From Escherichia coli (GTDB lineage Bacteria > Pseudomonadota > Gammaproteobacteria > Enterobacterales > Enterobacteriaceae): DNA of 1,800 nt. A program made the position numbers and the translations under genes. Under the pieces are notes generated by a model. It searched no databases. It was not told the DNA's origin and was given only the letters and a program-made list of their open reading frames with translations. The DNA is taken from NCBI RefSeq assembly GCF_003334355.1, contig NZ_QOWP01000080.1; one strand, given 5' to 3'. Shown here in pieces: positions 1 through 1,800 of this stretch. Positions within the stretch are counted from its first letter, which is position 1. Every line of letters begins with the position of its first letter.

Positions 1-1800
1 GTCAGCCTGCCGTGACGGTCATACCGGTAAAGATAGTGCGCGTCACGGGCGATACGGTTATCCGGCCACATGCTGAGGGTGCTGTCCGGGTGCAGCTCCG
101 GGTCGGGCAGGCGGTTGCCCGCCGGGTCCGTGGCATACGGGATGCGGATATCCAGATTCGCTGCGGTGGTGTGAACGCCGGTCAGCCTGCCGGTGGTGCT
201 GTAGCTGTAACTCCGGGTCTGGCGCGGGCTGCTGATGCGGATGAGTTCGCCGTTGTCGTTCCAGGTGTAATCGCGGTCATACTGCAGGCTGTTCAGGTGC
301 TGACGCTGTAACTGCCCGGCAGGGGTGTAAGCGGTGGTGAGTTCATAACGACCGAAGCTGCGCAGCGTTTCCCGGTGCAGGCGGTCGCGGGTGAAATCCA
401 CCAGCGGTGTGTCGCCGAGCTTCATGCCTGCCAGCCAGCCGCTGCCGTAGGTCAGCCATTCCACGGCGGGCAGGCTGTCCGGTATACAGCGGTTCGCCAG
501 CCCCTGCGCGTTGTACGCATGTCTGGTCTCATGCTGCCAGAGCAGTGCTTCCGTCTCCGGGTGATGCACCGTCTGGCGCTCACCGGTCAGGCGGCCTTTC
601 TCATCATACCTGTAATGCACCGCCACCCGGTGCCCTTCGCTGATATGGCTGATGTCTGTCAGCCAGCCACGTTCGTCATACTGCCACCGCTCTGCGGTTT
701 CACCCTTCACGGTGCGGTGCGTGAGGCGGTCTGCTTCGTCATAGTGCCAGTGGGTGACCAGACCCTCATCCTCGCTGCGGATAAGTTTGCCGGTCAGGTC
801 GTGGTGATAACGCTGTGTGCGGCCGTCAAAGCCGGTTTCCTGTATCAGCCGGTCAAGTACATCGTAACGGAAGGTGGTGTGGCTGCCGTTTTCACTGGTC
901 AGGCGGATGACCCGTCCGGCAGCATCGTATTCCATACTGCGCGTCAGCCCGCCCTGCGTGGTACGGACGGCCTTTCCCCACGCATCGTACTGTGTCCCGT
1001 TTCTGCTGCCGTCCGGGGCAATGACGGCGGTCAGGTCACCGGCGATGTTGTATTCATACCGCGTTTCATGGCCCTGCGTGTCTTTCACGGCAATTAACTG
1101 TCCACGGCTGTCGTATGCGCGGTACTGACTCAGCCCTTCCTCGCGGTGCACCGCCGTCATCTGCCCGAAGCGGTCATGGTCATAACGGGTTACATAACCG
1201 GAACAGTCGGTGAAGCTCAGCAACTGACCGTAACGGCTCCACGTCATGGTTTTCCGGCTGCCGGTGGCATCTTCCGTTGCGCAGGGTAAGTCACTGTGTG
1301 GATTATCATAACGGTAGCGGGTGATATCGCCGTCAGGGGCAGTTTCCTGAATCAGACGGCCCAATTCATCATATTCCCGGCGCAATTCCAGCCCGTCAGG
1401 CCCGGTGGCTGACGTTAACTGGTTGTGGTGGTTATAGTAAAACGCCGATGCCCTGCCATCCGGCGTGGTTATGCGCGTGATGAGGCCCGTCACCACATCC
1501 GGGCTGTATTCTGTTGTCCGGCCTGCGGCATCCGTCTGTGTCCTGAGCCTGCCCACGGCGTCAAACTGACTCTGCGTGACGCTGCCGTCCGCGTGTTCCT
1601 TTTTCACCACCCGCTTCAGCCCGGCTTCGCCCTGCGTGTGCAGCACTTCACGGCGGTCCAGGCTGTCGGTGATGGTGATGTGGTCTTTCTCATACTGATA
1701 CGTGTAGCTTAAGCCTGCCGGGTTAAGCTGTTCTGTCACCCGCCCGTCGCTGTCGTAACGGTAACGGATTTCCGGCCGGCCCGTGTGACGGTGCGCCACC
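1..1800 (-). CDS. Rhs-family YD-repeat core protein (RhsA-D-like polymorphic toxin scaffold), internal fragment, partial at both ends; N-terminus beyond coordinate 1800, C-terminus beyond coordinate 1
   Basis: Seen in sequence: the reverse-complement frame whose first full codon is 1799..1797 (GTG) runs 599 codons to 5..3 with no stop; coordinates 2..1 are the start of the next codon. Translation begins [74 protein letters not shown] and ends [21 protein letters not shown]. It carries many YD-repeat motifs, e.g. [127 protein letters not shown]. Composition is GC-rich (35/60 and 40/60 G+C in two hand-counted lines). Established knowledge: this motif pattern and periodicity define Rhs/YD-repeat shell proteins. 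Paralog and species cannot be assigned without a database search. Confidence 0.92.

Follow-up and report, generated by a model that had tools for sequence, protein, structure and literature searches.

The window, the whole stretch of 1,800 nucleotides of Escherichia coli DNA analysed here, is filled by part of one gene read on the minus strand. From position 1799 to position 3 this strand holds the sole stop-free frame, 599 codons long and open past both window ends, whereas each of the other five frames contains 6-33 stops. Residue i of the translation occupies window positions 1802-3i to 1800-3i on the minus strand, so that residues 143-405 are exactly window 588-1373, the region in which the earlier note had described a repeat of about 21 codons. 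The plus strand also has frames of up to 240 codons (for example, 375-1097), and one could suppose that such a frame is the true coding feature and the minus-strand periodicity incidental. However, long antisense frames are expected because the G+C content is 61%, the plus frames taken whole are interrupted whereas the minus strand is open for 599 codons, and all database matches are to the minus-strand product. We regard a plus-strand gene as vanishingly improbable.

The best match in a complete genome is 99.5% identical, with none at 100%, and is annotated as 'RHS element core protein' in a ybfA-rhs-ybfC locus of strain J3. There are nine differences from this match, eight of them clustered in window 303-431, a patch that agrees with other paralogues. 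Annotated rhsB and rhsC genes are likewise among the matches, and cores at 95-99% identity occur in 3,799 further records. The fragment corresponds to residues 347-945 (offset 346) of a 1399-residue homologue, and the window holds only ∼43% of the protein. Residues 2-599 align collinearly with positions 356-959 of the NCBIfam profile NF041261 (RHS_core) at 1223 bits, a score proportionate to the length of the fragment; the curated cut-off of 2000 bits applies to the whole protein and is out of reach for 599 residues by themselves. The full-length homologue, a 99% identical protein, scores 2642 bits against that cut-off. Whereas the G+C content of E. coli averages ∼51%, it is 61.2% in the window and 73.5% at third codon positions. 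The Rhs core was described as G+C rich by Jackson et al., and the window shares this property of clade-I Rhs.

The repeat array and its surroundings are laid out as follows.

3-1799, minus strand: interior part of an open reading frame for an Rhs core (sole open frame; homology to annotated RHS cores)
558-1769, minus strand: regular YD array of 19 consecutive units, 20-24 codons each, residues 11-414 (register table and AlphaFold2)
588-1373, minus strand: region of the earlier note, residues 143-405, with 12 canonical YD motifs and one degenerate unit (motifs, autocorrelation, HMM)
1257-1322, minus strand: irregular unit with a long loop instead of the tight DxxGR turn (model: coil at 164-173, 10 residues)
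1191-1256, minus strand: degenerate unit lacking Y-D-x-x-G, anchored at W186 (register; Pfam RHS_repeat match at residues 188-222)
3-557, minus strand: less regular C-terminal part, residues 415-599, beta-rich with irregular spacing (model and autocorrelation)

The 19 units have the following bounds on the minus strand, from high to low coordinate.

Units 1-7: 1769-1707, 1706-1641, 1640-1578, 1577-1512, 1511-1449, 1448-1386, 1385-1323
Units 8-13: 1322-1257, 1256-1191, 1190-1128, 1127-1065, 1064-1002, 1001-942
Units 14-19: 941-879, 878-816, 815-756, 755-693, 692-621, 620-558

Each of the motif positions listed in the earlier note was checked against the translation, and all carry the aromatic-Asp/Asn motif.

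Residues 143, 164, 206/208 and 229: REYDELGRL, YRYDNPHSD, RYDHDRFGQ and RAYDSRGQL
Residues 250, 271, 291 and 312: YEYNIAGDL, TQYDAWGKA, MEYDAAGRV and FRYDVLDRL
Residues 333, 353, 374 and 398: YHHDLTGKL, WHYDEADRL, WQYDERGWL and YRYDEKGRL

The periodicity of ∼21 codons is real. Within the region, the BLOSUM62 autocorrelation peaks at lag 21 with z = 8.5 (in 1000 shuffles, the maximum z has a 95th percentile of 3.6), and harmonics appear at 42, 62, 83, 104 and 125. Gly-Gly spacing peaks at the same lag (z = 6) and again at 11, half the period (z = 4). Profile searches agree: 12 Pfam RHS_repeat matches were obtained, 10 with E ≤ 0.001 and two at E = 0.0024, TIGR01643 (YD_repeat_2x) reaches 129 bits (cut-off 15.8), and a 12-unit HMM tiles residues 140-413 gaplessly except for one degenerate unit. 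Self-BLASTP of the whole fragment returned the identity alignment alone; segment-against-segment BLASTP gave significant matches, with E = 1e-5 to 5e-7, at shifts close to whole multiples of the 21-residue unit, namely 2.0, 2.95, 3.95, 6.1, 7.05, 9.1, 10.05, 11.1 and 13.1 units. The regularity of the spacing thus stands, but the range of 20-23 codons first given for it has to be widened to 20-24, as the step from 374 to 398 is 24. In the same list, 164 is followed by 206, a step of 42 residues, because the degenerate unit sits between these two motifs.

The same register runs upstream to the edge of the window, with anchors at 15, 36, 58, 79, 101 and 122, so the array comprises 19 units and is larger than the region of the earlier note. 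These 19 tandem units, related to YDxxGRL(I/T), give the window the many tandem YD repeats that mark the clade-I Rhs core. In residues 415-599 only isolated YD-like motifs remain, at 429, 513 and 593, and autocorrelation over residues 406-599 shows no significant lag-21 signal. Taken with the profile and G+C results, the array points to an E. coli clade-I Rhs core protein of the RhsA/B/C type, encoded on the minus strand, as its source, and this assignment belongs to an overall explanation that we hold with high confidence.

The earlier note had expected structure prediction to give a beta-rich shell, and the AlphaFold2 model is in line with this: residues 11-418 are 55% strand and 1.5% helix, with 38 strands over 19 units, or exactly 2.0 per unit. 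In the model, strand 1 of a unit ends at the YD aromatic, and a turn of five residues, D-x-x-G-R, leads into strand 2, which consists of L-(I/T)-x-x-x. The degenerate unit has the usual strand-turn-strand arrangement (182-187 and 193-197), and the second strand of the irregular unit at 1257-1322 is just three residues long (174-176). The pLDDT is ∼85-95 for residues 10-420 and 35-85 in residues 415-599; the underlying alignment is shallow (13 sequences), and the modelled shell, with a pTM of 0.60, is a partial one.

Sequence homology places residues 2-570 on the shell of Pseudomonas aeruginosa Tse5 (8cp6; E = 9e-68), and the fragment can be aligned to two teneurin-like proteins and to six Rhs cocoon proteins besides Tse5. 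Tse5 is also the best Foldseek match to the model (E = 3.9e-40, TM-score 0.67 on the query), followed by other T6SS Rhs cores and then by teneurins and TcB/TcC. For the part of the shell that the window covers, the model has the form of a beta-hairpin spiral. Tse5 has 40 hairpins with DXXGR at the turn, and these have been compared with the E. coli YDXXGRL[I/T] consensus (PMC10684867); the YD motif has been described as the transition from a strand to a sharp turn, with the toxin enclosed by the container (bioRxiv 10.1101/2024.02.26.582050). Older literature tied YD repeats to carbohydrate binding and a role at the cell surface (PMC2935791), from which one would picture an extended, surface-exposed, ligand-binding fibre rather than a closed shell. 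Every solved homologue of the fragment is, however, a closed cocoon, the modelled sheet curves into a spiral that resembles Tse5, and the pre-structure view has been superseded in later structural papers (PMC10684867; bioRxiv 10.1101/2024.02.26.582050). A fibre is accordingly a very improbable form for this array. On the homology to Tse5, the predicted strands, the Foldseek matches and the published structures, the reading of the repeats as hairpins of a closed shell is supported and belongs to textbook knowledge. The YD hairpin has been shown to be the unit of a toxin-enclosing cocoon in a dozen solved structures.

We propose that each unit of ∼21 residues, with the pattern x-x-x-[R/x]-[Y/aromatic]-D-x-x-G-[R/x]-L-[I/T]-x-x-x-x-x-[D/x]-G-x-x, would form two short beta-strands. 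The first strand would close on the aromatic residue, D-x-x-G-R would make the tight hairpin turn, L-(I/T) would open the return strand, and a second, Gly-containing turn would lead into the next unit. Neighbouring hairpins would join side by side in a single continuous antiparallel sheet, and the spiralling of this sheet would build the wall of a closed cocoon. By analogy with homologues, the cocoon would hold a variable C-terminal toxin tip, autoproteolysis at the conserved end of the core would set this tip free, a small immunity gene downstream would shield the producer, and the toxin would serve in inter-bacterial competition. At the DNA level, only in-register microhomologies of 8-11 nt are left, through which whole hairpins are occasionally lost in frame. 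We are strongly confident of this explanation as a whole, in which the repeats are the YD array of a clade-I Rhs core that forms a hairpin cocoon.

Several of these elements lie outside the window. In the full-length homologue, DUF6531 (46-123) is followed by RHS repeats (318-981), an RHS/Rhs_assc_core domain (1143-1247; PF03527 at 1143-1179 and TIGR03696 at 1170-1247) and a 150-residue tip, and the small gene ybfC overlaps the rhs gene downstream. Where the expected DPxG-(18)-DPxG motif has its second DPxG, this protein has DSMG. Judging from the 99%-identical homologue, the shell would close beyond the window ends, where the cleavage motif, toxin tip and immunity gene would also be found. 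Pfam identified no PAAR domain in the closest full-length protein, whose N-terminus shows DUF6531 only, and no vgrG or hcp gene occurs in the 13.8 kb around its locus. As both PAAR and adjacent vgrG/hcp are absent there, export of this clade by a T6SS is only a possibility suggested by its relatives.

The earlier note had also suggested that the related DNA of successive units is a possible substrate for intragenic recombination. The extreme form of this idea is that the 63-bp periodicity is a DNA tandem repeat on which RecA-dependent recombination acts, or a contingency locus whose repeat number varies appreciably. A DNA-level signal does exist. Nucleotide identity at lag 63 is 37% (z = 5.2 against codon shuffles), and short exact repeats are enriched, in register as well as overall: 47 direct repeats of at least 8 nt were observed against 18.4 ± 4.2 in shuffles, and 18 in-register repeats of at least 8 nt against 3.8 ± 1.8. 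None of 300 shuffles matched the observed total or in-register count, and the enrichment in microhomology is overall 2.5-5 times. The units themselves are far from alike, however, with a mean unit-to-unit DNA identity of 39% (range 25-57%). Exact runs in register reach at most 9 nt, and no exact direct repeat in the window is longer than 12 nt, which is shuffle-like (codon-shuffled controls: mean 11.1, 95th percentile 13). Tandem Repeats Finder reported no 63-bp array in the window, and no head-to-tail DNA copies alignable over tens of bp of identity are present. Efficient RecA-dependent exchange in E. coli requires roughly 23-27 bp of perfect identity, more than any unit pair offers. The units are thus too diverged to be a substrate for homologous recombination. 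The DNA periodicity is statistical only, and the repeat is a protein-level constraint. The recombination behind the name rhs takes place between whole paralogous cores (PMC2935791).

What part of the suggestion survives concerns two natural deletions of whole units, whose junctions lie on microhomologies of the array.

1071-1080, minus strand: upstream copy of the 10-nt microhomology CACGCAGGGC (gene strand), T-Q-G codons in the distal turn of unit 229; left junction of the 120-bp deletion
951-960, minus strand: downstream copy of CACGCAGGGC, T-Q-G codons of unit 271; right junction of the 120-bp deletion
735-743, minus strand: upstream copy of the 9-nt microhomology TATGACGAA, Y-D-E codons of unit 353; left junction of the 63-bp deletion
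672-680, minus strand: downstream copy of TATGACGAA, Y-D-E codons of unit 374; right junction of the 63-bp deletion

The 120-bp deletion, the junction of which was mapped on contig L002, removes 40 codons in frame, equivalent to two hairpins or four strands. Its junction was sought with a 44-mer having 17-nt flanks, a probe for which intact alleles cannot seed a match, and was found at 88 places in 82 of 5,426 complete E. coli genomes, at three rhs loci and with several toxin tips. The junction is identical across these 82 genomes, which come from many hosts and countries. One carrier is an intact 4116-nt rhsB gene in strain ET881 (nikR-rhsB-yhhH locus type), and the deletion is also present in the independent draft assemblies P0062, P0072, P0077 and P0101. 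The 63-bp deletion removes exactly one unit, residues 356-376 with two strands; if the flanks are included, the TATGACGAA match covers 15 nt with a single mismatch, and its copies are spaced by 63. This allele occurs in one complete genome, NZ_AP027479.1, in the rhsC gene of strain LR-17-1, which retains an intact 1377-residue frame. This and other predicted junctions were sought with a multi-junction probe whose mismatching spacers leave no 28-mer in common with the window; 28-nt matches at 100% that contained no junction (query 337-364, 18-45 and 382-409) were discarded. The complete E. coli genomes gave no match to any of the six duplication junctions that had been predicted.

Such alleles might instead be artefacts of assembly or sequencing that reflect no true rearrangement of the array. 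Only one assembly carries the 63-bp deletion, and the close homologues include a precedent: an apparent 72-residue duplication in P0050 lies on a 1.9-kb contig, the paralogue signatures of its two copies differ (AIC versus AVR), and it would add seven strands, an odd number, so that it is most simply an assembly chimera. An identical 120-bp junction in 82 independent complete genomes and at three chromosomal loci is, in contrast, hard to obtain by error, the same deletion recurs in independent drafts, and the reading frames are intact. An artefact is therefore very unlikely for the 120-bp allele and possible for the 63-bp allele, and as an account of the deletions in general we consider it improbable.

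We take the deletions as natural and now weigh them against the tandem-repeat reading, for which they are one argument. They account for just 88 + 1 of ∼20,400 core copies, none of the predicted duplications was recovered, and repeat number is unchanged in distant relatives: at 37-62% identity, no indel of five residues or more occurs over window residues 1-483. Repeat number, judged on six collinear relatives from the representative search, is otherwise strongly conserved; most other representative matches are giant YD-repeat proteins that align only repeat to repeat, and these were left out. The best 120 close homologues are near-identical E. coli fragments only and served as a source of indel variants, not of diversity. 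With these observations added to the low identity between units, the reading as a DNA tandem repeat open to homologous recombination is largely refuted, and we rate a recombining repeat or contingency locus as highly unlikely. The in-register excess of short repeats, together with natural junctions on those same repeats, does mark the array as a hotspot for microhomology deletion. Because the units are too diverged and the junctions fall on microhomologies, the deletions appear to be rare microhomology-mediated events and not the result of crossing-over between repeats. It is conceivable, though we put it forward only tentatively, that shells lacking one or two hairpins arose by microhomology deletion in the array and that the 120-bp allele, seemingly, moved between paralogous cores through gene conversion.

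The periodicity itself is already known, and its detection here is a rediscovery of a long-known feature of E. coli Rhs, on whose proteins the YDxxGRL(I/T) repeat was defined decades ago. The main value of the present case is as a clean positive control, in which a reading of sequence only placed the motifs to the residue. A modest addition is the excess of in-register microhomologies and the existence of strains that lack one or two hairpins at such sites; a literature search found no relevant description of variation in Rhs repeat number or of in-frame deletions. Distant relatives hold the repeat count fixed, in contrast to the E. coli deletion alleles. Should these alleles prove functional, the cocoon can bear a quantised loss of wall hairpins, and for the engineering of Rhs/Tc shells as protein containers they would be natural examples of hairpins that can perhaps be removed. 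They also bear on concerted evolution among the rhs paralogues.

Of the known systems, RhsA, RhsB and RhsC of E. coli K-12 (clade I, Jackson et al. 2009; NF041261) are the nearest, at 95-99.5% nucleotide identity to the fragment. They have the same YDxxGRL(I/T) repeats, a motif first defined on E. coli Rhs proteins (PMC4436062; PMC10684867), and a core with the same 61% G+C as the window. The K-12 locus types are also alike (ybfA-rhsC-ybfC and nikR-rhsB-yhhH), and nothing of substance is different. The closest solved structure is that of Tse5 (8cp6), a T6SS Rhs effector with 32% identity by fold comparison. Tse5 differs in having a PAAR-like N-terminus and proven T6SS export, whereas the E. 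coli homologue has DUF6531 only, without a PAAR match, and the C-terminal toxins of the two are unlike.

More distant likenesses are found in TcB-TcC and in the teneurins. TcB-TcC (4igl, 4o9x) shares the hairpin-spiral cocoon, the RHS repeats and the enclosed toxin, with Foldseek E ∼1e-18, but identity is 13-14%, TM-scores are 0.28-0.38, and its shell is larger, split over two proteins, with a TcB beta-propeller gate, and docks to the TcA injection pore. Sequence searches with the fragment yield Rhs proteins rather than members of the TcB/TcC family, to which the fragment does not belong and which it resembles at the level of the fold only. The YD-shell of teneurins (6fb3 and others; PF25023, TEN_YD-shell, which is precomputed on close homologues of the fragment) is a shell of bacterial ancestry that matches the model with Foldseek E = 1e-20 to 1e-24. 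Teneurins are, in contrast, eukaryotic adhesion receptors with ∼14% identity to the fragment, extra domains and no toxin delivery.

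A single one of the six frames of the window is open, on the minus strand from 1799 to 3 (599 codons without a stop); the remaining five contain 6-33 stops each. Residue i of this translation lies at window 1802-3i to 1800-3i, and residues 143-405, where the earlier note had placed a ~21-codon YD repeat, map exactly to window 588-1373. The G+C content is 61% (73.5% at third codon positions), which fits the known G+C-rich composition of the Rhs core (Jackson et al. 2009, PMC2935791). Plus-strand frames (375-1097 (+) and others, up to 240 codons) were rejected as antisense shadows, expected at 61% G+C, and there is no database support for plus-strand frames opposite rhs.

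Among complete E. coli genomes, the window DNA matches 20,427 places in 3,904 records (median five per genome), all of them annotated as RHS element core protein, rhsB, rhsC or rhsA. The top match (99.5% identity) is in strain J3, where the gene sits between ybfA and ybfC, the rhsC locus, and encodes 1399 residues, of which the window corresponds to 347-945. The J3 protein scores 2642 bits with the NCBIfam equivalog RHS_core (cut-off 2000), and the 599-residue fragment matches that profile collinearly over profile positions 356-959.

Pfam architecture of the full-length homologue
Residues 46-123: DUF6531
Residues 318-981: RHS repeats
Residues 1143-1247: RHS / Rhs-associated core domain
C-terminal ~150 residues: tip, without Pfam assignment

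The fragment is a member of the E. coli clade-I Rhs core family: all features of that family testable within the window are present, and those beyond it are found in the 99%-identical full-length gene, except for PAAR/VgrG linkage. At residues 1221-1247 of the J3 gene (L001:4638-8837), the expected core-end DPxG-(18)-DPxG reads DPIG-(18)-DSMG, lacking the second Asp-Pro. The locus also carries the ISAs1-family transposase pseudogenes ybfD and ybfQ, downstream of rhs and ybfC.

The ~21-codon period reported in the earlier note is real. An aromatic residue followed by Asp or Asn and then x-x-G/D-[R/K/x]-L is present at every motif position it had named, and BLOSUM62 autocorrelation within that region has its maximum at lag 21 (z = 8.5; the 95th percentile of maximum z in shuffled controls is 3.6), with harmonics at lags 42, 62, 83, 104 and 125. 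Glycine-to-glycine distances show peaks at 21 (z = 6) and at half that period, 11 (z = 4), in agreement with the G residues every 9-11 residues remarked on by Jackson et al. (2009, PMC2935791). Pfam RHS_repeat matches the fragment 12 times at E < 0.01, an HMM made from 12 units covers residues 140-413 end to end, and non-overlapping segments match one another in BLASTP (E = 1e-5 to 5e-7) with shifts no more than 0.15 from whole unit numbers. The proposed spacing of 20-23 codons needs widening to 20-24, and the 42-residue step from 164 to 206 hides one degenerate unit. The register runs on upstream to the window edge, giving an array of 19 units (residues 11-414, window 558-1769); by autocorrelation, regularity falls off downstream of residue 414. 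In the unit at window 1257-1322 (residues 160-181) the motif is missing its G-R-L half, and the model gives this unit a 10-residue loop.

Each repeat had been proposed to form a β-hairpin of the Rhs shell, and both homology and modelling bear this out. The fragment aligns to the solved shell of Tse5 (8cp6) with E = 9e-68 over residues 2-570, and also to P. protegens RhsA (7q97), Advenella VgrG-Rhs (8qja), Tse15, RhsP, a Salmonella bongori Rhs core, Photorhabdus Tre23 Rhs (7pq5) and two teneurin-like proteins. An AlphaFold2 model built from an input alignment of 13 sequences has a mean pLDDT of 81 (about 85-95 across residues 10-420), and its array is 55% strand and 1.5% helix, with 38 strands over the 19 units (exactly two to a unit). 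The same layout recurs in nearly all units: the first strand terminates on the aromatic of YD, D-x-x-G-R forms a five-residue turn, and L-(I/T)-x-x-x is the return strand. Two one-turn helices (residues 58-61 and 220-222) break the all-β array. In a Foldseek search of the PDB, Tse5 comes top (E = 3.9e-40, TM-score 0.67 on the query), followed by other T6SS Rhs cores, then teneurins, then TcB/TcC. The Tse5 barrel has 40 hairpins with the consensus YDXXGRLV, in which DXXGR is the turn and Tyr faces the cavity, and its repeats were likened to the E. coli YDXXGRL[I/T] repeats in the same paper (PMC10684867).

The suggestion that the related DNA is a recombination substrate holds in part. Units share 23% identity in protein and 39% in DNA (range 25-57%), with a longest exact run in register of 9 nt. 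Across the whole window, exact direct repeats reach at most 12 nt, no more than in codon shuffles (mean 11.1, 95th percentile 13), the best repeat from a repeat search of the window is 45 nt at 76% identity, and Tandem Repeats Finder detects no 63-bp array in the window. RecA-dependent exchange in E. coli requires ~23-27 bp of perfect identity, which rules the array out as a substrate for homologous recombination. It does, however, hold an excess of in-register microhomology. At lag 63, nucleotides are identical more often than in codon shuffles (37%, z = 5.2), and there are 47 exact direct repeats of at least 8 nt against 18.4 ± 4.2 in the shuffles, 33 of them in frame (shuffles, 11.3) and 18 spaced no more than 9 nt away from a multiple of 63 (shuffles, 3.8 ± 1.8); none of 300 shuffles reached 47, 33 or 18.

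Natural deletions are also found. Window residues 241-280 are absent from four E. coli close-homologue clusters (P0062, P0072, P0077 and P0101), and in the P0072 contig this loss is a 120-bp in-frame deletion whose junction is a 10-nt repeat, CACGCAGGGC (window 1071-1080 and 951-960), spanning T-Q-G codons of the distal turn in each of two units. A junction-spanning 44-mer that cannot be seeded by intact alleles has 88 matches, in 82 of the 5,426 complete genomes.

Locations of the 120-bp deletion allele
rhsB: intact 4116-nt gene, strain ET881
rhsA (L004:1815-7274): gene interrupted by IS150 near the 5' end, strain 14EC007
Third locus, between rpmE and yiiX: intact 4065-nt gene

The 14EC007 rhsA locus also has orphan fragments of core and tip after yibA. 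The four sequenced deletion cores have flanking variants in common (alignment columns 331, 378, 416, 418, 859, 862 and 946) and are otherwise mosaic, a pattern that fits, short of proof, one origin of the allele and later gene conversion between paralogues. The deletion takes out four model strands, or two hairpins, and leaves a 22-residue hybrid unit, a length that other units also have. In a model of the shortened fragment, which is weak evidence, the strands go on alternating across the junction, and confidence dips only locally, to a pLDDT of ~66.

The six closest in-frame microhomology pairs were also searched, each as deletion and as duplication, with the twelve predicted junctions in one query separated by mismatching spacers. 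The positive control, the 120-bp deletion, was recovered, together with one additional junction, a 63-bp deletion in rhsC of strain LR-17-1 between two copies of TATGACGAA (Y-D-E; window 735-743 and 672-680). This gene keeps an intact 1377-residue frame minus exactly residues 356-376, which is one unit and two strands. No duplication junction was found among the six pairs. Both alleles are rare, at ~0.4% (120 bp) and ~0.005% (63 bp) of ~20,400 core copies. Over window residues 1-483, no indel of 5 residues or more occurs in six collinear relatives (37-62% identity); the full repeat count is therefore ancestral and strongly conserved. Known rhs recombination is of a different kind from deletions inside the array: the name comes from recA-dependent unequal crossover between the rhsA and rhsB cores (PMC2935791), and toxin-tip displacement works through core-core homology (PMC2935791; PMC4436062).

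Other variants were seen in the core. Nine nucleotides differ from the J3 rhsC-locus core, and eight of them cluster in window 303-431 (129 nt; residue changes at 457-499). There the window is identical to rhsB-/rhsA-type cores (L002-L004), as if the patch were a tract of gene conversion between paralogues. The homologue P0048 (26.6-kb contig) has a 352-residue insertion after window residue ~543, a second, diverged copy of the segment at about residues 270-540, which could be explained by a large duplication within the gene, by a chimera formed from two core lineages, or by misassembly. P0117 (1.7-kb contig) has a junction after residue 403 on a repeated L-T (GRLTG versus EWLTYG), and P0085 has a variant site after residue 487. 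In P0050 (1.9-kb contig), residues 252-323 (72 residues) seem to be duplicated in tandem, which would bring in an odd number of strands, seven. One copy has the paralogue signature KAICTT and the other KAVRTT, so that two rhs genes were probably joined into a chimera during assembly.

Both the YD periodicity and what it means for the structure were known before. What bears out the recombination idea, in its qualified form, is a small, apparently unreported polymorphism; that shells in nature tolerate the loss of hairpins in quantised steps is a tentative proposal, and rather doubtful. Whereas the repeat, its period, the hairpins of the model and the homology to solved shells are observed directly, the homologues and the flanks of the 99%-identical gene suggest that the protein would form a closed shell, release its tip by autoproteolysis, be countered by an immunity protein from the downstream gene and be exported. 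The export route is the weakest step: the closest full-length homologue has no PAAR domain at its N-terminus (DUF6531 alone, by Pfam) and no vgrG or hcp lies near rhs in the surrounding 13.8 kb; the route used by this clade is not evident from that gene context. The fragment's protein would work like Tse5 and other Rhs cocoons. It is also like TcB/TcC and the teneurin YD shell at the level of the fold, but is a member of neither group.
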